NCBI GenBank assembly: GCA_019058315.1
Contig: JAHPZH010000002.1
Span: forward strand, 1,229,910-1,293,909
Length of the DNA stretch: 64,000 nt
Reading direction: 5' to 3'
From: Candidatus Helarchaeota archaeon
GTDB taxonomy: Archaea; Asgardarchaeota; Lokiarchaeia; Helarchaeales; RDOG01
The position numbers and the translations under genes are program-made. Shown here in pieces: positions 52,362-63,056 of this stretch. Each line of letters begins with the position of its first letter. Within the stretch, counting starts at the first letter, position 1. The notes under the pieces were generated by a model. That model made no database searches. It was not told the origin of the DNA and worked only from the letters and a program-made list of their open reading frames with translations.

Positions 52362-52811
52362 TTATTTTTTTAAAATATCTTTAAATAATTCTTTTAATGC
52401 AGTTTTAATCCCATCACGAACTTTTCTAAATATTTTTATTATTTCCTCTTCAGAACCTTTAGCCCTTGCAGGATCTGTAAAACTCCAATCTAATTTCTGT
52501 TTTGAATTCCCAATGAATAAAGGACAGATTCCTCCGGGGTCCCCTGTACATAAAGTAATCACATAGTCAAAATCTTGTCCATTGAATTTTGTAACTAATT
52601 TACTTTTTTGATTCGAAATATCAATTCCAATTTCTTTCATAACTTTAATAGCAAGAGGGTGAACTTCTGCTGTTGTAGCACCTGCACTAAATGCTTTAAT
52701 TTTATCATTCCATAAATTATTTACAAGTCCCTCACTCATTTGGCTTCGACATGAATTACTTCCACATAAAAATAAAACTCTATATTTATTGACTTTTGTT
52801 GATTTGACCAC
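52362..52811 (-). CDS. arsC: Arsenate reductase, LMW-PTP type
   Basis: Motifs CGSNSCRSQM, TLC......CP and DP. Confidence 0.88.
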   Translation of the reverse strand: MVKSTKVNKYRVLFLCGSNSCRSQMSEGLVNNLWNDKIKAFSAGATTAEVHPLAIKVMKEIGIDISNQKSKLVTKFNGQDFDYVITLCTGDPGGICPLFIGNSKQKLDWSFTDPARAKGSEEEIIKIFRKVRDGIKTALKELFKDILKK

Positions 52812-52989
52812 ATTAAAAACTCCTTAAGTTTTAAAAATATATTAGACTATGAATATTTAAATCTGGTTAGAGGAAAATTAAAAATTATTCATTTAATGGG
52901 CTAAAAAATTGAAAATATTTCAATAAGATATTATTTTAACCAAAAATTTTTATAAAAAATATAAAAAAAGAGTAAAATAAACTGTTATC

Positions 52990-53973
52990 CTATTTAAAAC
53001 CTTCTACCTTAATACTTGTTACTATACCCGCATAATCTTGTATGGTTTCTTTCGTTATGCCTAGTTTTTTAATAACTTCATCTACAATTGGATCATTTAT
53101 TATGAAGTCAATTGGAAAGGTAGTTTCACCTTTAATATTAACATTCTTAAAACCTGCATTTTTTATAGCATCAAGATACTCATTTTTTAATACTGCACCA
53201 GCAACACAACCAACATAAGCTTCTACGGAGTTTCTGATGAAATCAGGGAGCTCTTTCATTAAAACAATATCTGAAATCATTATTCTCCCTCCAGTTTTTA
53301 AAACTCTATAAGCTTCTTTAAATACTCTTTCTTTATTTGGAGAGAGATTTATTACACAATTCGAAATAATAACATCAACCGAGTTATCAGCTAGTGGTAA
53401 ATTTTCAATTTCTCCAAGTCTAAATTCTACATTTTCATAATTGCCTTTTTTAGCATTCTCTCTGGCATTATCAAGCATTTCTGGTGTCATATCTACACCG
53501 ATAACTTTTCCAGACTTTCCAACTTTATTGGCCGCAAGAAAACTATCGAATCCGGCACCTGATCCTAAGTCAAGAACGAATTCTCCTTCTTTTAAAGACG
53601 CCAAAGCAGTAGGATTTCCACAACCTAATCCGAGATTTGCACCTTCAGGGACAGATTTTAATTCTTCATTAGAATATCCTATTTTTTTACTGATTGTTTC
53701 TGTTAATTGGTCTGTTCCACAACAAGATGTAATTTTAGATTTTCTTTCACCTGTAGCGGTTTTAGCATAACTTTCCCTAACCATAGATCTTATTTCGCTA
53801 TCTTTTAATTTATGAATGTTCTCATGTTTAATCTTATCAACTTCTACATCGTGTGTGTGTCCACAAGTATTTGTAGGTCCACAGCAAGACCCCATATCTT
53901 TAAATTCTTTAAAGAATTTTTCATATAATTCTTTGTCTTTTTTCTTTTCTTCATCTTCATTCATATTTTTCAC
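52990..53973 (-). CDS. arsM: Arsenite S-adenosylmethionine methyltransferase
   Basis: Motifs [30 protein letters not shown] and GCVAGA. Confidence 0.93.
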
Positions 53974-53981
53974 CTCAGATA

Positions 53982-54272
53982 CTATTCAAATAAACCTTTC
54001 ATAATTGGTCCTAGCAAATTTTTTGCTCCCTCTAAAAAATATTCTGCTTTGATTAATGTCAAACAACAAACTTCTCCTTCAGATTCCCCGCTAATTAAAA
54101 CAAATTTTTCTCCTGGTTTTAAATTAGCTTTCTCCCTTACATCCTTCGGAAGAAGAATCTGCCCTCTCTTATCAACTTCCACAATTGCGTCAACTTTAAC
54201 ACACTTAGAACCGTTAAGCATCTTGCTAGTTTCACAACAAGCATTATTTATTTCATTTTTTTCCTTAGACAA
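53982..54272 (-). CDS. AbrB/MazE-type DNA-binding protein with Cys pairs (HgcC-like)
   Basis: [17 protein letters not shown], with CC motifs near the N-terminus and in VCCL. Confidence 0.85.
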
Positions 54273-54440: not shown

Positions 54441-55538
54441 ATGAATTTAATAATTATAGAGGACCCATTAAGAGAATTAATAATTGGCATAAACTATTTC
54501 ATACAAATATTAATATTTCAAATGGGTTTATTATTTATTAAACAATGGAAAAGCGGATTTAGAAAACAATCCCATAATAGAGTTGTTCTAAGTTATGGTT
54601 TTTATTATATCTTTTTAGCTATAAGTATTTTCTTCAATACTTTTTTCTACTATCAAGGACTCTCTAATCTTGCTTATGATAGGGTTCTTATCCTTTCTGC
54701 TTTCATAAGAGGAATAGGTGGAACATTATTTTCAATTAATATAGAAAATTTTATTCAAAAAGTTTTAAAAACGAGGTATTTATTTTCAATTTTCTTTATT
54801 ATTATATTGTTTGTAGTTCCATTATTTCAAAATAACCCACTTCTCTATCAAACCTTAAATTTCTTTAATTTATTCTATTTTTCGCTTCCATTTATTTTTA
54901 CATTATTTTTTATAAGAAATACCTTTGATGAAGTTAGGAAAAAATTAAAAATTTCCTTGTTTGGGATCGTTTTATTATTTTTAGGCATCTCTTTTTCTAC
55001 AGAAACACGCTTAGAATGGATCACAAGTATAATTCCTAATATTTCTCTCGTTAAAATTATTTTTCAACTAGTATCTGTTTTCGGAATTTTCCTTTTCTCT
55101 TATGGTGTTGCTGGATATTCATTTTCTTTAGAATTACAGTGGCAAAATAATTTGATATCTTTGTATATTATCGATATAAAAAGTAATTTCTGCCTTTATA
55201 ATAAAAATTATCTTGAGAGTGAGATTAAAAGTGAGCAAATATTTGCTGGGGGAATTGCTGGAGTTATAAAAATTATTAAAAAATTCACGAGTTCGCATAA
55301 AAACCTTGATGTTATTCATATAGAAAATAAATTTATTTTAATAGAATTCGGAAAGAATATTATTACAGCAATGATAATTAAAAAGAATTTATTAAATGCA
55401 AGATATATTTTGAAAGAAATTACAAGAATGTTTGAGTTCTATTTCTGGGATTATTTAGAAAATAGAGATTTAATAGCTGATAAATCAGAAATTTTTAAAC
55501 CAATGGAAATTATAATGAGAAATCTAATAAAATTATAA
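54441..55538 (+). CDS. 7-TM + longin-like protein, type A (pair 1)
   Basis: Seven TM segments; IRGIGG; C-terminal LYII...FAGGIAG...LIEFGK...FEFYF. Confidence 0.75.
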   Translation: MNLIIIEDPLRELIIGINYFIQILIFQMGLLFIKQWKSGFRKQSHNRVVLSYGFYYIFLAISIFFNTFFYYQGLSNLAYDRVLILSAFIRGIGGTLFSINIENFIQKVLKTRYLFSIFFIIILFVVPLFQNNPLLYQTLNFFNLFYFSLPFIFTLFFIRNTFDEVRKKLKISLFGIVLLFLGISFSTETRLEWITSIIPNISLVKIIFQLVSVFGIFLFSYGVAGYSFSLELQWQNNLISLYIIDIKSNFCLYNKNYLESEIKSEQIFAGGIAGVIKIIKKFTSSHKNLDVIHIENKFILIEFGKNIITAMIIKKNLLNARYILKEITRMFEFYFWDYLENRDLIADKSEIFKPMEIIMRNLIKL

Positions 55539-55551
55539 TTAGGATTCAAAA

Positions 55552-56622
55552 ATGACGTCTTATCCAATATTCGGACATTATAGAGGAATATTATTACCTC
55601 TTGAAATAATTATGACTGGTATAATTCTGGAAATCTCGGCATTTTTTTTCCTCAGATATTTAAAAAATAGAAAAGAATCGAGACCATCTGTGGTTGAACT
55701 AAGTTGGGGAATTCTCTTTTTAAGTTTTGGAATAGCATATGTAATTTATATAATTGGTGATTTCTTTTTTGTAAGTCGTGAATTTTTTCTTCTTCTTGCA
55801 TATACTTCTTTAACTATTGGTGGATTCCTCTATGCATATCAAGTTGAATCTTCTAAGATCATAAAAACAAAGTTTTTCTTCACTGGATTTACACTTCTTG
55901 TATTATTTCTATTTTTTTTAACAGTATTTATTGCTCCAACCTGGATTCAAACAGTCGCAAGCATAGCAGTTTTCCCTGCATATTCAATATTATTGATATA
56001 TTTTATAAAAATATTTCAAAAAATATGGGTTAGATATAAATTACACATAATAGGTCTATTTGCTGGTTTCTTTCTTTGGTTCTTAGGGTACACAGCAGTC
56101 TCAGATACGTCGATTGCACTTTTTAATACTTTAGATATCCGAATTTTTGGGGATTTTATAATTATAATTGGAATGATAATACTTGGTTTATCCTTAAATG
56201 CGATTCCTTCTTTGAATGAAATCGGATGGTCAGACCAGATCAAATATATTCTTCTAATCCATCAATCTGGAATCTGTTTATATAATGAAAATTTTAAGGA
56301 AAAGAGAGAAATAAATCAAAATGTTTTGGGAGGTGCTTTAGCAGCAGTAAAATTAATAATGGAAGAAAATTTGAAAAGAAAAGAAAAATTAAAAATGATT
56401 TCTAAGGCTGGGGATGTTTTTTTAATTGAAGAGGGTGAATATACTATTGGAACTTTAGTAGTTTCCCAAGAATTAGAAATTTTAAAATATTTTCTAAAAA
56501 AGGTTATTCAGCAATTTGAAGATTTTTTTAATGAATTTTTAAAGAAATGGGATGGGAATATAAAGGTATTTAAACCAGCGAAAGGGATCATTAATAAAAT
56601 ATTTTCAATTGAAAAGACATAA
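55552..56622 (+). CDS. 7-TM + longin-like protein, type B (pair 1)
   Basis: N-terminal YPIFGHYR; TM7 RIFGD; PSLNE; HQSGICLY...GGAL...WDGN. Confidence 0.75.
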   Translation: MTSYPIFGHYRGILLPLEIIMTGIILEISAFFFLRYLKNRKESRPSVVELSWGILFLSFGIAYVIYIIGDFFFVSREFFLLLAYTSLTIGGFLYAYQVESSKIIKTKFFFTGFTLLVLFLFFLTVFIAPTWIQTVASIAVFPAYSILLIYFIKIFQKIWVRYKLHIIGLFAGFFLWFLGYTAVSDTSIALFNTLDIRIFGDFIIIIGMIILGLSLNAIPSLNEIGWSDQIKYILLIHQSGICLYNENFKEKREINQNVLGGALAAVKLIMEENLKRKEKLKMISKAGDVFLIEEGEYTIGTLVVSQELEILKYFLKKVIQQFEDFFNEFLKKWDGNIKVFKPAKGIINKIFSIEKT

Positions 56623-56645
56623 ATTATTAAATATTTCGAAATTAT

Positions 56646-57086
56646 TTATTTGGATATTCTTTTCATTCTCCCTTTATTGAGAATTGCATAAACTCCTTCA
56701 CCTATAGCACAAACAACCCCCTCCCTGTTAATAACTTCTGAAAAGAGTCTAACTTCCTTTTTATTCTTATTTTTCACTTGGGACTTAATAGTGATCCTCT
56801 CGTTAATAAAAATCGGTCGTTTAAACTTAACATTCAACTCTTTTGTTACACCAACTAAATTTGCTATATGTAGAACGGTCCAACTCATTGCTTCATCCAT
56901 GACCGAGCTAATTATTCCTCCATGGACTAATTGTTCCCATCCACAAAGTTCCTTTTTAGGAGTGAATTCTGTAACTATAAAGGAATTGTCCTCTATAAAG
57001 AACTTTAGTTTTAAACCGATAGGGTTATTTTGACCACACACGAAACAATAACTTTCACCATTTCCAGATGGGATTTCTTTTCGCAT
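56646..57086 (-). CDS. PaaI-family hotdog thioesterase
   Basis: Motifs CFVCG..NPIGL and HGGIISSVMDE. Confidence 0.9.
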   Translation of the reverse strand: MRKEIPSGNGESYCFVCGQNNPIGLKLKFFIEDNSFIVTEFTPKKELCGWEQLVHGGIISSVMDEAMSWTVLHIANLVGVTKELNVKFKRPIFINERITIKSQVKNKNKKEVRLFSEVINREGVVCAIGEGVYAILNKGRMKRISK

Positions 57087-57205
57087 TTTATTAAGCTCAC
57101 ATTAACATTTTTTTATAATCTATATAATTTCGAAATAATAAGCTTTTAATTCTATAAATAATTAATATTCTGAAAATATCCAACTTTATAGAATTGGGAA
57201 GTCAA

Positions 57206-58309
57206 ATGGAATTATCTTATCGAGATCCTTTCAATGAAATCTCTATTGGTTTGAATTACGTAATTGCCGTATTCCTTCTGGAATTGGGAGTAATATTTAT
57301 TAAGCAATGGATTTTTGAGAGAAAGAAACAAGTAAAAAACGAATTTGGACTAGGTTATGGAATATATTTTTTAACTTTTTCAATAAGCAGTTTTCTATAT
57401 TTTTACATTATCGATCATGATATGTCTAAACAAGTTTTCGATTCATCTTTCATCTTAAGCATATTAATAAGAGGGATTGGTGGATTATTTTTTGCAATTA
57501 ATTTAGAATATCATGTTCAAAAGGTGTTAAAAACAAGATATCTTTTCTCGATTTCATCGATTATTTTGTTACCTATCATTACTTTTTCTTTAGATACCAC
57601 TTTCTTTTATCGGGTTCTAGATATATTTGATATTTTTCATTTGATTCTTCCTATTTATTTTACTAGTTATTTTATAAGAAATGCATTCGGTGAGATAAGA
57701 CAAAAGTTGAAATTTTCAGTATCGGGGTTCCTTTTATTTTTCATAACTTTGACCTTTTCTTCAAAATTACGTATAGAAATAATCGAAATTATATTTTCCT
57801 TTGCAAATATTATAATTTTTCTTTCTAAATTAATAGCAATATTGGCGATTTTTTTTGTTCTTTATGGTTTTACAGGATATTCATTTTATTTGGAAACACA
57901 ATGGAAAAATAATTTGATCTCCATACATATAATTAAAAGGAAAGAAAGAGTTAGCTTATATAATAGGAATTTTTTAAGTAGTGAGATACAGAGTGAAGCA
58001 TTATTTGCAGGTGGAATCACAGGAATGGTAAAAATAGTTAGTGATTTTACAGATTCCAATAAAACTCTCCAAGAAATTAATGTAGAGGATAAATTGATTT
58101 TATTAGAATTTGGGAAATACATTATTACAGGAATGATTATTAAAAAAAGGGTGTTAAATGCTAGATATATTTTAAAAGAAATAACTTCAAAATTTGAGTT
58201 TTATTTCCGTGAATATTTAGAAAATTACGAATTATTTTCTAGTTCATATACCCAAGCAGAACTATTTCGACCAATGGAAATGGTCATTAGAAATTTAATA
58301 AAAATGTAA
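57206..58309 (+). CDS. 7-TM + longin-like protein, type A (pair 2)
   Basis: Paralog of 54441..55538 (IRGIGG, QKVLKTRYLFSI, NARYILKEIT). ATG 57206 preferred as start. Confidence 0.75.
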   Translation: MELSYRDPFNEISIGLNYVIAVFLLELGVIFIKQWIFERKKQVKNEFGLGYGIYFLTFSISSFLYFYIIDHDMSKQVFDSSFILSILIRGIGGLFFAINLEYHVQKVLKTRYLFSISSIILLPIITFSLDTTFFYRVLDIFDIFHLILPIYFTSYFIRNAFGEIRQKLKFSVSGFLLFFITLTFSSKLRIEIIEIIFSFANIIIFLSKLIAILAIFFVLYGFTGYSFYLETQWKNNLISIHIIKRKERVSLYNRNFLSSEIQSEALFAGGITGMVKIVSDFTDSNKTLQEINVEDKLILLEFGKYIITGMIIKKRVLNARYILKEITSKFEFYFREYLENYELFSSSYTQAELFRPMEMVIRNLIKM

Positions 58310-58322
58310 TTTAGATGGTAAA

Positions 58323-59396
58323 ATGGTTGATTTTCCGATAGTTGGACCATATAGGGACTTACTGATGGCATTGGAACTAATTATTATATTCATTGTATTA
58401 CAAAATTCGTTATATTTTTTTCAAAAATATCGTAATAATAAAAAAAATGAAGTTCCTTCGTTTGTTGAATTTGATTGGGGTATAATTTTTCTAACATATG
58501 CGATAACGAGTATTGCTTATATTTTCAGTGCGTTTTTTTATGTTATTCGAGTTCATTTTCTTTTCATCGGTTATATTTCTGTAGCAACTGGAGGTTTAAT
58601 ATTTTCATATAGTGTAGAATCAACAAAAACTGTTAATACAAAATATTTCTTCACGCTTTTTACTACTTGTGTTATAATCCTACTAATAACTATTTTTGTA
58701 GTTGCCGAATCATTATTGCAAACATTTGCATATTTAGCTATGGGTCCCGCATTTACATTATTATTTTTCTACTTTTTTAAAGTGAGTAAGAAACTTTGGA
58801 CTGGATATAAACTGCATTCAATAGGTTTATTTCTCGGAGTTACTCTATGGTTTGTAGGATATATGGGAACTTCGGATGTGGCAGTTGGATTATTTGGGGG
58901 GTTATATATTAGGGTAATAGGAGACCTAGGAATAATATGTGGAATGCTATTAATCGGAATTTTCTTGAATTATATACCCTCCTTGTCTGAAATTGGTTGG
59001 CAACAAAAAATCAAATATATTCTTATATTAACTCATTCAGGAATTTGCGTATATAATGAAAACTTTAGAGAAAAAAGAGAATTACGCGAAATTATTTTAG
59101 CGGGAGCTCTATCTGGTATTAAATTGTATATGGAAGAAACTCTAAAAAGTTTTCCAAAATTAAAAACGATTTCCAAAGAAAATGAAGTGTTTTTATTAGA
59201 AGAGGGTAAATATATTATTGGAGTTTTAGTAGTTGAACAAGAATTAGAAATTTTAAAATACTTTTTGAAAAAAATAGTGTATGAATTTGAAGAATTTTTT
59301 CAAGATATCTTAAAAAATTGGAATGGGGATACTAATATTTTCAAACCTACTAAAAATATCGTCAATAATATCTTGTCTATTGAAAAATATATTTAA
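58323..59396 (+). CDS. 7-TM + longin-like protein, type B (pair 2)
   Basis: Paralog of 55552..56622 (FPIVGPYR, RVIGD, PSLSEIGW, QELEILKYFLKK). Confidence 0.75.
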   Translation: MVDFPIVGPYRDLLMALELIIIFIVLQNSLYFFQKYRNNKKNEVPSFVEFDWGIIFLTYAITSIAYIFSAFFYVIRVHFLFIGYISVATGGLIFSYSVESTKTVNTKYFFTLFTTCVIILLITIFVVAESLLQTFAYLAMGPAFTLLFFYFFKVSKKLWTGYKLHSIGLFLGVTLWFVGYMGTSDVAVGLFGGLYIRVIGDLGIICGMLLIGIFLNYIPSLSEIGWQQKIKYILILTHSGICVYNENFREKRELREIILAGALSGIKLYMEETLKSFPKLKTISKENEVFLLEEGKYIIGVLVVEQELEILKYFLKKIVYEFEEFFQDILKNWNGDTNIFKPTKNIVNNILSIEKYI

Positions 59397-59434
59397 TTTC
59401 AAAAATTTACTTTCAAAATCAAATACTATCAATA

Positions 59435-59460
59435 ATTTCGCTCTAGCGAAATCTTTTTTT
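59435..59460 (+). terminator. Hairpin followed by T-tract
   Basis: ATTTCGC-tcta-GCGAAAT followed by C and a T7 run, between pair 2 and pair 3. Confidence 0.5.
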
Positions 59461-59517
59461 GATTAATAATGTATTTGAAAACATGATAAGAAATTCAAAT
59501 TATGGGAGTTAATTCAA

Positions 59518-60588
59518 TTGATACAATTTCCAATTCAAGGTTCATTTAGAGAGATTATATTAATGGTTGAGATGATTATTGTTGTTTTGAATATTCAATT
59601 TGCGATAATATTTTTGAATCGGTATCTAAAACAAAAAGGGGTTAAAAATAATATGTATATAGCTTGGACAATACTATTTTTTTGCTTTGCAATTACTTAT
59701 TTCCTATTTATATTAACTGATTTCTATGTTTCTCCCAACGATCGCCCATTTTTTTTAAATATTAGCTATATTTTTATAGGTTCTGGTCAAACTTTATTAT
59801 TTTACAATATAGAAAGAGAAATGAAATCAGAAAAATATATTTTTACAAAGATTGTTTTAGGAGTTTTATCTTTCTTTATTATCAATACTATTTTTAATTT
59901 AATATATTCAACTCCCTTCTCTACAATTTATTGGGGGTTATTTTTCGTTCTTTTAATCATTTTTGGTAATAAATATTTAACCAGAATTAGACAAACTTGG
60001 AAATTGAATATATATGGCTTCATAATAGGGGCAACATTAACAATTATAGGGTGGGGGGGAATATCTGATTTAGGTATGAGTATTTTAGGTATAGAATTTC
60101 GTTTATTTGGTGATTTGTTTATAATTACCGGAACAAGTTTAATGACCCTATTTTTCGTTGGTTTACCTCGTCTATCTGAGATCGATTACTTCGAGAAAGT
60201 TAAAAGGATTTTTATAATGCATAATTCAGGAATACCAATATTCGAGCAAACTTTTAAAAAAGAACAAGATTTTAAAGAAACTGATTTAAGATCTTCACTA
60301 TTTGCGGGGGGATTGACCACAGTATCACAATGGATTACGGATTTAATCCAAAGTAAAGGTCACTTGGAGATAGTCGATCATGGAGATGTAAAAATAATTT
60401 TTGAATATGGTAAATATACAATAAATGTTTTAATTGTTGAAGAAGTGCTTAATATTTTAAAAAACAAATTGAAAACAATCACAAATGAAGTTGAGAATCT
60501 ATATCAAGACATTCTTCCAACTTGGGAGGGAGATATGTCTCCGTTTGAATTGTTAAAAAATATAATTCAACAAAATTTTGAAATTTAA
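59518..60588 (+). CDS. 7-TM + longin-like protein, B-like (pair 3)
   Basis: Motifs FPIQGSFR, RLFGD, PRLSE, HNSGIPIF, FAGGL and WEGD. Confidence 0.75.
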   Translation: MIQFPIQGSFREIILMVEMIIVVLNIQFAIIFLNRYLKQKGVKNNMYIAWTILFFCFAITYFLFILTDFYVSPNDRPFFLNISYIFIGSGQTLLFYNIEREMKSEKYIFTKIVLGVLSFFIINTIFNLIYSTPFSTIYWGLFFVLLIIFGNKYLTRIRQTWKLNIYGFIIGATLTIIGWGGISDLGMSILGIEFRLFGDLFIITGTSLMTLFFVGLPRLSEIDYFEKVKRIFIMHNSGIPIFEQTFKKEQDFKETDLRSSLFAGGLTTVSQWITDLIQSKGHLEIVDHGDVKIIFEYGKYTINVLIVEEVLNILKNKLKTITNEVENLYQDILPTWEGDMSPFELLKNIIQQNFEI

Positions 60589-60616
60589 TTTGGTTTAATT
60601 TCCTAAGTGAAGTAAA

Positions 60617-61735
60617 ATGTTACAATTACTATTAGAAAGAATCCCACCACTAATCAGAGAATCAAACTTCCCTTTAGAAGGTCTATTTAGAGAGCCACTT
60701 TTAATTCTTGAAGGAATTATTATTCTTTTAACATTTCAATATGGAATTTATTTCTTCTATAAATTTGCAAAAGAAGAGAGGGAAAAAAATTATATGATAA
60801 GAGCTTGGGCTACTTTCTTTCTAAGCTATACCTGTAATATTATCTTTTTTCTTATTAGCGATTTCTTTTCAACTATATATTATATTCGCCAAATATATAT
60901 TGACTTTGGATATATTATATTGGGACTTGGAGCGTTATTCTTTTCATATAATGCAGAACGTGAAATGCAGCAAAAAAAACATTTTTTCACAATAATTCTA
61001 ACAATATTATTAGGCCTACTCATTTTAGATACAATTTTATTAGTTGCTCCCCCTGGCGTTATAGCATTATTTGTGAATATACCATTTATTTTTGTATTAT
61101 TACTATATATTATAAAATTTACATCCAAAATAAAAGAAAAATGGAGATTAAATATATATGGTTTTTTAATTGGTATGTGCATCTGGATTTCTGGATATGC
61201 ACTTGTTACAGATCTAATGGTTAATTCATTTGGTACAATTGCAAGATTTATTGGAGATATTTTAATTATAATTGGTATAAGCTTAATATCACTTCTATTC
61301 ATCGGATTGCCTAGTCTGACAGAGTTTGAATGGCCAAAAAAAATGAAAAAAATATATGTAATGCATAAATCGGGAAAATATATCTCTGATTACAATTTTC
61401 AAGAGAATTTAACTGGAACTGAAGAATACAAAGATTTACCCAAATTAATCACAGGTGGATTGACAGGTATAAATAAATTAATTGATGAAATTGTCCATAG
61501 CAAAGAAGGTTTAAAAATTATGGATCATAAAGATGTAAAAATAATTTTTCAATACGGAACTTATCTTATAGCTGTGATTATCGTGGATGAAGCATTAGAT
61601 ATATATAAAACAAAACTAAAGAAAATGATAGATTATTTAGAAATGCTCTACGAGACCTATCTCCCCACTTGGGATGGAGATTTAACCCAATTTCTAATTA
61701 TTAAGCCTATAATAAAACGCTTCTTTACATTATAA
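60617..61735 (+). CDS. 7-TM + longin-like protein, B-like (pair 3)
   Basis: Motifs FPLEGLFR, RFIGD, PSLTE, HKSG, ITGGL and WDGD. Confidence 0.75.
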   Translation: MLQLLLERIPPLIRESNFPLEGLFREPLLILEGIIILLTFQYGIYFFYKFAKEEREKNYMIRAWATFFLSYTCNIIFFLISDFFSTIYYIRQIYIDFGYIILGLGALFFSYNAEREMQQKKHFFTIILTILLGLLILDTILLVAPPGVIALFVNIPFIFVLLLYIIKFTSKIKEKWRLNIYGFLIGMCIWISGYALVTDLMVNSFGTIARFIGDILIIIGISLISLLFIGLPSLTEFEWPKKMKKIYVMHKSGKYISDYNFQENLTGTEEYKDLPKLITGGLTGINKLIDEIVHSKEGLKIMDHKDVKIIFQYGTYLIAVIIVDEALDIYKTKLKKMIDYLEMLYETYLPTWDGDLTQFLIIKPIIKRFFTL

Positions 61736-61786
61736 TTCTTTATTATTTAATTGGGATAATGATTAATTTAATTCAAGAGTTATTAA

Positions 61787-62317
61787 TTAAACAGATGTTT
61801 TACTCAAAATTATTTTTGCAAAGTTATAAAAGGCTTCGTTAATCATAATATCAGCTTTTGCAGAGGTTTCAAAAAAACCATCTGCTTGCAGCATTTGTGC
61901 TAATTGTTCTCCCTCTTCCTTGGTAATTTGTCTGCTATCTTCTAAATCAACTTTATTCCCAACAATAATGAAATGAGCATCATTTGTGAAAGATTTTAAA
62001 TCGCTATGCCAATTTGGTATATTTTCAAAAGAATCTCTATCTGTAATTGAATAGACTAATAATGCAGCTTGAGCACCTGCAGCATATTTTTTTCTCAATT
62101 CCTTAAATTGTTCTTGACCTCCAATATCAAAAATTACAAATGTAACAGAATAATCGCCACTTTCACTAATATCAATCTGTCTTTCATAAACATTATATCC
62201 CAAAGTTGATAAATATTGACCCTCAAATCTATTGTTAATATATCGCTCAACTAACGAGGTCTTACCAACCGCAGCGTTGCCAAAAAGTACTAATTTGAAT
62301 TTATATGAGGCCGCCAT
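61787..62317 (-). CDS. Rab-like small GTPase
   Basis: G1 GNAAVGKTS, G2 STLG, G3 DIGGQ, G4 NKVD, G5 ETSAK. Confidence 0.95.
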   Translation of the reverse strand: MAASYKFKLVLFGNAAVGKTSLVERYINNRFEGQYLSTLGYNVYERQIDISESGDYSVTFVIFDIGGQEQFKELRKKYAAGAQAALLVYSITDRDSFENIPNWHSDLKSFTNDAHFIIVGNKVDLEDSRQITKEEGEQLAQMLQADGFFETSAKADIMINEAFYNFAKIILSKTSV

Positions 62318-62546
62318 CTTTACTCTTCCTATAAAATTTTTTGACTTTCATTTTTTAATAGATTAAAGTAGATCTTATTAACTTAGGATAATATGTAGTT
62401 AAATTTTTTTAAAAATCTGATGAGAATTTATAATTAATAATATTTAATTATAAGAAATATGTAAAAATTTAATTTGAAATCAAAATTTGAGATTTAGACC
62501 TTTTAAATTTTACATCTAATTTGATGTTGGCTTTTTATATCAAAAT

Positions 62547-63056
62547 TTAACCCACAAGTACTTTAGCAAATGTCAAAAACGCGTGATCAATCCCTATATT
62601 TTCCTTTGCGGAAGTTTCAAAAAAACCATCTGCAAATAATTCCAATGATAAATCTTCCCCTTCTTGAATGGTAACAACCCTTTGATCTACTAAATCAACT
62701 TTATTTCCAATCAAAATAAATCGAGCACCATCAGTGAATTCCATTAAATCATTATACCAATTTCTAACATTTTCAAAAGAATCTCTGTTTGTAATGTCAT
62801 ACATTATAAGTGCTGCATTAGCTCCTTTCGAGTATTGCTTTCTCAATTCTGTAAATTGTTCTTGTCCACCAATATCAAAAATTAAAAATGATATTCGATT
62901 ATTACCCATTTCGATAATTTTTTCTAGCACATTATATCCTAATGTAGAAATATAATCTTCTTCAAATTTATTATTAACATACCTATTAACTATCGAAGTT
63001 TTTCCGACTGCCGCATTACCATATAAAATAATCTTGAATCTATAAGTAGGCTCCAT
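62547..63056 (-). CDS. Rab-like small GTPase (paralog)
   Basis: G1 GNAAVGKTS, G3 DIGGQ, G4 NKVD, G5 ETSAK. Confidence 0.95.
   Translation of the reverse strand: MEPTYRFKIILYGNAAVGKTSIVNRYVNNKFEEDYISTLGYNVLEKIIEMGNNRISFLIFDIGGQEQFTELRKQYSKGANAALIMYDITNRDSFENVRNWYNDLMEFTDGARFILIGNKVDLVDQRVVTIQEGEDLSLELFADGFFETSAKENIGIDHAFLTFAKVLVG

Follow-up and report, generated by a model that had tools for sequence, protein, structure and literature searches.

In a 64,000-nucleotide stretch of the genome of a Candidatus Helarchaeota archaeon (G000:C5:1229910-1293909; hereafter the window), which is part of a 1.4-Mb contig in an Asgard genome of 5.8 Mb, we found six paralogous genes whose products combine a predicted seven-helix transmembrane (7TM) domain with a C-terminal domain of predicted longin fold, and which converge on two genes for Rab-like small GTPases. 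We classified this locus as a longin platform for small GTPases that forms part of a seven-helix membrane protein and whose genes stand in pairs, the platform role being a prediction. The reading that we prefer, and to which we give about an even chance, is that the paired proteins, termed A-type and B-type, constitute a membrane-fixed longin dimer that serves as a platform for the neighbouring Rab-like GTPases.

All six 7TM-longin genes lie on the plus strand within positions 54441-61735, and their products, of 365, 356, 371, 357, 356 and 372 residues, could be aligned over the full length (Table 1). They are grouped into three close pairs whose members are 13, 13 and 28 bp apart. The A-type proteins P0003 and P0001 are 48% identical, and the B-type proteins P0004 and P0002 share 51% identity. 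A first-pass annotation, made from the letters of the DNA alone, had placed eight open reading frames (ORFs; six paralogs and two GTPases) in this region; we recovered them at the same coordinates, together with the 51 bp that it gave between the end of the last paralog (61735) and the first GTPase ORF (61787). It had also described one array of six co-oriented paralogs; the number and the strand are right, but a minus-strand gene for a 4HBT-family thioesterase interrupts the array, which is really composed of three pairs. Though it splits the array, this thioesterase gene probably stands outside the 7TM-longin system.

The C-terminal domain comprises ~135 residues in each of the six paralogs. 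When modelled alone by AlphaFold2 with 50 homologs, it gave a predicted local distance difference test score (pLDDT) of 82 and a predicted template modelling score (pTM) of 0.80, and its strands (E) and helices (H) were assigned as E9-16, E21-26, H35-52, E59-64, E67-73, E77-83, H88-110 and H116-130. This strand-strand-helix-strand-strand-strand-helix-helix order is that of longins and was seen in both the isolated-domain and the full-length models. In the structural comparison of the isolated domain, solved longins were on top (Z 12.8-12.0, root-mean-square deviation (rmsd) 2.6-3.6 Å, 114-126 residues aligned), among them Fuzzy (7q3d_C), Sec22 (3egd_C), VAMP7, synbindin and sedlin, with SRX of SR-alpha included down to Z ~11; the Lokiarchaeota longin 8yqg matched at Z 11.9, whereas roadblocks came lower, at Z 8-9.7 over ~87-107 residues. 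The top Foldseek matches, with a probability of 1.00, were delta-COP, Trs23 and AP sigma. The models also differ from the roadblock/LC7 topology, as they have only a 4-residue helical turn ahead of strand 1 and end, after strand 5, in two to three helices.

Profile methods gave fainter signals. A Pfam scan of the six proteins detected no longin-family match at E<=1, Sybindin (best 1.8e-4), Fuz_longin_1 (1.1e-3) and Intu_longin_1 (1.6e-3) each matched weakly in 4 of 50 family members, and a profile search of solved structures returned marginal matches only, to a chemotaxis-receptor helix (E 0.014) and to Trs23 (E 0.045). The strand/helix order of the AlphaFold2 models and the ranking of longins above roadblocks in both Foldseek and the exhaustive structural comparison support, at the level of predicted structure, the longin fold that the first-pass annotation had assigned to these domains. 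The C-terminal motifs quoted there hold in part: W.G[DN] is absent in two A-type proteins, and E[FY]G reads EEG in two proteins.

In the AlphaFold2 model of full-length P0004 (30 homologs, mean pLDDT 82), residues 10-216 form seven long helices, to which the compact C-terminal domain is joined by a linker of ~10 residues; the outside loops are very short and there is no extracellular domain in the model. We counted the helices from such models and from charge counts, a simple hydropathy scan being too noisy for this purpose. The number of lysine and arginine residues was 10.6 in the loops assigned inside versus 3.1 in those assigned outside, and the bias was present in 30 of 30 sequences. Because of this excess on the inside, the proteins are predicted to be oriented N-out/C-in with the longin domain in the cytoplasm, so that the seven membrane segments and the topology proposed in the first-pass annotation agree with both the modelled helices and the positive-inside rule.

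What the membrane domain is related to is less clear from the comparisons. The six proteins had no Pfam match at E<=1 in this part, and a feature search of the ESM Atlas gave scores of only 0.81-0.86, below the useful level (0.9). The best structural match was the G-protein-coupled receptor (GPCR) ADGRL3 (Z 11.8, rmsd 4.3, 201 residues aligned), followed by the non-receptor ceramidase ACER3 at Z 11.0 and by CD97, GPR156 and GABA-B at Z 9.5-10.7; all of these are under the level of ~13 that is common for helical bundles. We therefore read the likeness to GPCR bundles as a common seven-helix arrangement in the models, not as homology. Acidic residues are conserved inside helix 1, and conserved charged residues occur within the membrane helices. 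In the duplicated pairs, the identity of the membrane domain was lower than that of the longin domain (40 vs 61, 45.5 vs 61 and 34 vs 43%). This faster divergence is compatible with varied inputs to a common output, and relaxed constraint on membrane helices gives the same pattern.

The two GTPases proved to be Rab-like, as had been annotated: both carry a Ras-superfamily G domain by Pfam (Table 1) and their closest characterised relatives are Rabs. The best solved relatives were Rab23, Rab8A, Rab21 and Rab3, at ~1e-31 to 1e-33, and a Thorarchaeota Rab at 1e-30. They are ~40% identical to animal Rab8A, and GTPase 2 is 60% identical to GTPase 1. Both end a few residues past the last helix and have no cysteine there that could form the C-terminal prenylation motif of Rabs, and for this reason we call them Rab-like and not Rab. 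Inspection of the sequences showed that an N-terminal amphipathic extension is also absent in both.

Since this genome is dense in GTPase ORFs (104 in 5.8 Mb), adjacency of a GTPase gene alone means little. The arrangement in the window, however, recurs. The block consisting of a DUF763 gene, two GTPase genes and then a converging TM-longin pair (TM, transmembrane) was found in three other assemblies (L071/L072, L073 and L085), in which the counterpart of GTPase 1 is 89% (L071/L072), 71% (L085) and 70% (L073) identical. These assemblies carry one or two TM-longin pairs where the window has three, and orthologs of P0005 (354-356 residues) and P0006 (372-385 residues) hold the equivalent positions in L071, L073 and L085. 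In addition, the genome has a second cluster at C11:127048-132965 (L077), in which two GTPases are accompanied by two A-then-B pairs in the order GTPase, B and A (minus strand), GTPase, A and B (plus strand); orthologs of this cluster (L074, L087) are found in two of the assemblies that share the block. One of its GTPase genes stands 99 bp ahead of a pair and is read in the same direction, which makes co-transcription more plausible in the C11 cluster than in the converging layout of the window.

The phylogenies connect the two clusters. Their four GTPases form a clade with 100/100 support among the 43 short GTPases of the genome, and their membrane-longin proteins form an exclusive A clade and an exclusive B clade, each with a support of 0.98. 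The order A-then-B is kept in four pairs, and the third pair of the window consists of two B-derived proteins. At the level of the subfamily, these trees and maps show that the GTPases and the A/B proteins are co-located and co-duplicated. Pairing is also common beyond it, as tandem TM-longin pairs with gaps of ~6 to 125 bp were present in 16 of 20 loci (15 from family f2). In family f2, which belongs to the same class as the genome of the window, TM-longin pairs adjoin GTPases of other subfamilies (L035-L039, L060 and L061), which are 33-46% identical to any GTPase of this genome. As the adjoining GTPases are of different subfamilies, this suggests that the association between TM-longin proteins and GTPases arose more than once.

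Several observations weigh against a functional tie between the two kinds of gene. Per gene, 20.5% of the TM-longin genes of this genome lie within 2 kb of a GTPase gene versus a background of 7.8%, a value inflated by tandem copies; when counted per cluster, only 4 of 31 lay within 1 kb of a GTPase versus 2.0 expected by random placement (P 0.13), and we dropped the claim that TM-longin genes cluster with GTPases throughout the family. In other genomes, 31 of 40 loci had no GTPase in the flanks (up to ~8 kb, less on short contigs), including the four best-scoring matches (L031-L034), and only 7 of 40 had one within ~1 kb. The linkage to GTPases that the first-pass annotation expected to recur is hence supported for this A/B subfamily only, by the three other assemblies and the paralogous C11 cluster, and does not extend to the TM-longin family as a whole. 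In the window itself the array and the GTPase genes are read towards each other from opposite strands and hence are not co-transcribed. The assemblies that share the block also share unrelated flanks (the 4HBT, MazE-like and methyltransferase genes), and inherited synteny could explain part of the conservation, just as segmental duplication could have given rise to the second cluster without any functional tie. It was also reported for strain MK-D1 that GTPase genes as a rule do not share an operon with longin or roadblock genes (Tran et al. 2024, PMC10933270).

In the interpretation of the locus that we think most likely, the two proteins of each pair would join through their longin domains to give a dimer fixed to the membrane by fourteen helices. 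We consider a longin dimer per A/B pair because the genes come in tandem pairs and because in eukaryotes the longin platforms that serve Rabs pair two paralogs as a heterodimer, as in Mon1-Ccz1, Fuzzy-Inturned and TRAPPC1/C4 (Levine 2013, PMC3747258). The dimer would then dock the neighbouring Rab-like GTPases. These lack a lipid anchor, and docking would therefore bring them to the membrane; it would probably also control their nucleotide state. We infer the dimerisation, the GTPase binding and any exchange or GTPase-activating effect; the dimer may load GTP, accelerate hydrolysis or act as a tether only. In three proteins of this genome a domain of this family is joined directly to a Ras-type GTPase domain, which supports a dealing of the platform with GTPases. 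A complex prediction with the longin domains of P0005 and P0006 and GTPase 1 scored 0.27 versus a mark of 0.32, a value that weighs neither for nor against binding.

Among characterised systems, the predicted platform resembles, in several features, the heterodimeric longin exchange factors for Rabs, that is, Mon1-Ccz1, Fuzzy-Inturned (CPLANE), HPS1-HPS4 (BLOC-3) and TRAPPC1/C4 (Bet5/Trs23). They share the longin fold (Fuzzy, Z 12.8-13.2; Trs23, Z 12.9), the weak Pfam signals point to their families (Fuz_longin_1, Intu_longin_1 and Sybindin), and two diverged paralogs are encoded as a pair; moreover, the presumed client is Rab-like, as for Fuzzy-Inturned, whose client Rab23 is the best solved relative of the GTPases. 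Unlike the Mon1-Ccz1-type tri-longin factors, each 7TM-longin protein has one longin domain and not three consecutive ones, and no Bet3-type subunits of the TRAPP kind were seen nearby. Whereas the eukaryotic factors are soluble and are recruited by lipids or proteins, the longin domain here is fused to a seven-helix membrane domain.

The SRX part of SR-alpha, whose chains matched at Z 10.5-12.0, is likewise a longin that binds a small Arf-like GTPase (SR-beta) at the membrane, a binding that is only proposed for our proteins. In the signal recognition particle receptor, however, the GTPase is anchored and the longin protein is soluble, whereas these roles would be reversed in the Asgard proteins, with an anchored longin protein and a soluble GTPase. 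Ragulator-Rag and MglB-MglA are also roadblock/longin dimeric platforms that keep a small GTPase on the membrane (Ragulator) or switch it (MglB), and LAMTOR and MglB chains matched at Z 8-11. They have the roadblock topology with an N-terminal helix, their clients are Rag or MglA and not Rab-like GTPases, and Ragulator is anchored by lipidated LAMTOR1 instead of transmembrane helices.

Among prokaryotic systems the actinobacterial conservon comes nearest; in it, the membrane sensor kinase CvnA, the roadblock protein CvnB, CvnC and the Ras-like CvnD are separate proteins (PMC13621833, PMC13343842). In contrast to that histidine-kinase-type system of actinobacteria, the Asgard proteins carry the membrane and longin parts in one polypeptide and have a longin in place of a roadblock, and Pfam detected no kinase or HATPase domain in the six 7TM-longin proteins or their neighbours. 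The Asgard expansion of longin and roadblock proteins and their fusions to GTPases and signalling domains have been described (Liu et al. 2021 preprint, 10.1101/2020.10.19.343400; Tran et al. 2024, PMC10933270), and the 7TM-longin proteins are part of the same lineage-specific expansion of longins, this genome also having longin-GTPase fusions and NPRL-like proteins with longin and winged-helix domains. The word "transmembrane" occurs 0 times in the main texts of these two studies, and a transmembrane-longin fusion is unmentioned in the literature that we searched. The eukaryote-like families listed in a 2026 preprint (10.64898/2026.10.28.762692) include Asgard 7TM proteins and a class C GPCR-like cluster.

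The 7TM-longin proteins are part of an extensive, unnamed family of Asgard proteins. A profile built from the six sequences matched 2399 cluster representatives at E<=0.001, a number that fell to 238 at E<=1e-30; the best 150 listed representatives were almost all colinear proteins of 340-400 residues. A match at E<=1e-20 was present in 87 of 201 genomes of the phylum, with homologs labelled Promethearchaeota and Helarchaeota. Two ESM Atlas clusters showed the whole architecture at a TM-score of ~0.75, one with 313 members (mostly Promethearchaeota) and one with 65 (mostly Thorarchaeota); these clusters and the homologs in public records are named "hypothetical protein" only. In this genome the longin-like domain was found in 117 ORFs, of which ~40 encode membrane-longin proteins of 340-400 residues.

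Other ORFs combine the domain with different partners. It forms the C-terminus of an MFS transporter (540 residues, MFS_1 3.5e-18) at G000:C5:824007-825629 and of P0033, and MFS-longin variants of ~550 residues are common in the other searched genomes of the phylum. It also stands at the C-terminus of ~12 paralogous TPR proteins of ~1130 residues, several of them near each other on contig C3 (examples at C11:691678-695091, C3:1294819-1307814 and C3:1340278-1349016). Proteins of ~360 residues with an N-terminal longin and a C-terminal winged-helix domain are encoded at C5:554591-555673, C1:523201-524286 and C5:730038-731138, each 15-680 bp from a GTPase gene; they resemble the NPRL2/3-like proteins of Liu et al. 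2021, and the one scanned (C5:554591) had weak HTH_NPRL3 and HTH_47 matches in the winged-helix region. Three further proteins of ~322 residues (C5:543256-544224, C3:142046-143026 and C3:143156-144130) have an N-terminal longin-like domain followed by a Ras-family GTPase domain, which in the one scanned matched Pfam Ras at 9e-50.

A different explanation, which we think less probable, is that the longin-like domain serves a membrane transporter, channel or enzyme as its cytoplasmic module for regulation, dimerisation or small-molecule binding, having no dealings with the neighbouring GTPases, and that the adjacency is inherited synteny in a GTPase-rich genome. Most family members have no GTPase nearby, and the occurrence of the domain on MFS transporter, TPR and winged-helix proteins would mark it as a general-purpose module; the charged residues conserved inside the membrane helices would also fit this reading, and longins have been placed in a broader set of PAS/GAF-like folds (Dey et al. 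2016, PMC4917890). Against this reading speak the joint duplication of GTPases and A/B proteins, their standing together in two clusters that are both kept in other assemblies, the direct fusion of the same domain family to GTPase domains and the different GTPase subfamilies that adjoin TM-longin pairs in family f2. The membrane domain, moreover, shows no detectable transporter family. A role in trafficking or in coats, where the longin would act as in the longin SNAREs (Sec22, VAMP7 and Ykt6) or in the small subunits of AP/COPI, in membrane fusion or cargo sorting and not in GTPase control, seems to us very improbable. The longins of Sec22, VAMP7, AP sigma and zeta/delta-COP were indeed among the top structural matches (Z 10.6-12.8), but all longin classes were tied within ~1-2 Z units and the ranking therefore does not pick out the coat/SNARE class. 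The domain order is also the reverse of that of longin SNAREs, with the membrane part first and the longin last, the short linker between them leaves no coiled-coil SNARE segment, and no adaptor large-subunit genes were seen nearby among the window ORFs by Pfam.

The first-pass annotation had gone further than a platform and had proposed a receptor relay. In this explanation, which we regard as unlikely, each protein would be a ligand-gated receptor and guanine nucleotide exchange factor (GEF) in one, the seven-helix domain binding an external ligand and the longin domain catalysing exchange on the Rab-like GTPases, as in a GPCR relay without heterotrimeric G proteins. We would be equally surprised if the A/B pairs were receptors in which an external or membrane-borne signal alters the longin dimer, which then loads GTP onto the adjacent GTPases, the tandem pairs forming a diversified repertoire for two shared switches. 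The predicted N-out/C-in topology with seven helices is that of GPCRs, and the acidic residues conserved in helix 1 would fit such a role. The GPCR bundles ADGRL3, CD97, GPR156 and GABA-B are the best structural matches of the membrane domain, but even ADGRL3 scores under the level common for helical bundles, no Pfam family matches the membrane domain at E<=1, and there is no extracellular domain on the very short outside loops. In every duplicated pair it is the membrane domain that has diverged more quickly than the longin domain, yet this is expected without a sensing role as well. Similarly, the best-matching longins include subunits of the Rab exchange factors Fuzzy, Trs23 and Mon1-Ccz1, but longin/roadblock platforms are as often GTPase-activating proteins or plain scaffolds as they are GEFs (Levine 2013, PMC3747258; Tran 2024, PMC10933270). 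The membrane-fixed longin platform, which leaves both the input and the direction of control aside, is the reading that we retain as the preferred one.

Table 1 Genes of the 7TM-longin locus and its immediate neighbours (positions in the window; HMM, hidden Markov model)
Feature	Position	Strand	Evidence and remarks
7TM-longin A-type P0001, 365 aa	54441..55538	+	ORF, paralog alignment; domain HMM match 230-365 = longin; A clade support 0.98
7TM-longin B-type P0002, 356 aa	55552..56622	+	longin ~221-356; 13 bp past P0001; B clade support 0.98
4HBT-family thioesterase, 146 aa	56646..57086	-	Pfam 4HBT 1.7e-10
7TM-longin A-type P0003, 371 aa from TTG	57194..58309	+	longin ~232-371; ATG four codons in; domain HMM, tree
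7TM-longin B-type P0004, 357 aa	58323..59396	+	helices 10-216, longin 226-351 (AlphaFold2 models, fold searches)
7TM-longin B-derived P0005, 356 aa, TTG start	59518..60588	+	longin ~219-356; domain HMM, tree
7TM-longin B-derived P0006, 372 aa	60617..61735	+	longin ~234-372; 51 bp to GTPase 1; domain HMM, tree
Rab-like small GTPase 1, 176 aa	61787..62317	-	Pfam Ras 2e-48; G3 DIGGQ; no C-terminal Cys
Rab-like small GTPase 2, 169 aa	62547..63056	-	Pfam Ras 7e-48; G3 DIGGQ; no C-terminal Cys
DUF763 gene, 378 aa	63134..64000, continuing to 64270 past the window	-	Pfam DUF763 3e-117 (full ORF)

The surroundings of the locus are partly conserved as well. The DUF763 gene shares the strand of the GTPase pair and lies 77 bp upstream of it, a position kept in L071, L072 and L073, and a 146-residue 4HBT gene occupies the equivalent place in L071, L073 and L085. 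Upstream of the array, at 52362-54272 on the minus strand, are a low-molecular-weight phosphatase/ArsC-like gene (LMWPc 1.4e-20), an S-adenosylmethionine methyltransferase gene (Methyltransf_31 1.5e-42) and a MazE/AbrB-like gene (2.6e-6); the MazE-like gene was found again in L071 and L085 and the methyltransferase gene in L071. Just past the window, five tandem 7TM-only paralogs of ~258 residues that are 64-87% identical are encoded on the minus strand (G000:C5:1294330-1298550; L076:1431-5651), upstream of the DUF763 gene and the two GTPases on the same strand, and two to three such genes stand at the equivalent place in L071 and L073. Multi-copy arrays of seven-helix proteins are therefore present on both flanks of the Rab-like GTPases. 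The 7TM-only proteins had no Pfam match and showed no detectable relation to the membrane domain of the 7TM-longin proteins (hhalign probability 2%), so that we treated them as a separate family.

The Ras-superfamily GTPases of Asgard archaea number in the dozens, and their longin and roadblock proteins are about as numerous, but the genes of regulators and GTPases are seldom neighbours, and the assignment of regulators to GTPases is largely missing for this reason (Tran et al. 2024, PMC10933270); how regulators are matched to Asgard GTPases had already been raised as a question (Dey et al. 2016, PMC4917890). The locus described here is a defined and conserved pairing of one Rab-like GTPase clade with one clade of paired membrane-integral longin proteins, and its arrangement suggests an answer to how GTPases without an anchor reach the membrane, namely that the platform is the anchor. 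If the proposed binding is true, the membrane-tethered longin-Rab module would be older than the organelles of eukaryotes, and the locus would provide biochemists with matched partners to express. If the less probable receptor reading is true, the archaeal lineage closest to eukaryotes would possess a relay in which receptor and exchange factor are a single polypeptide.

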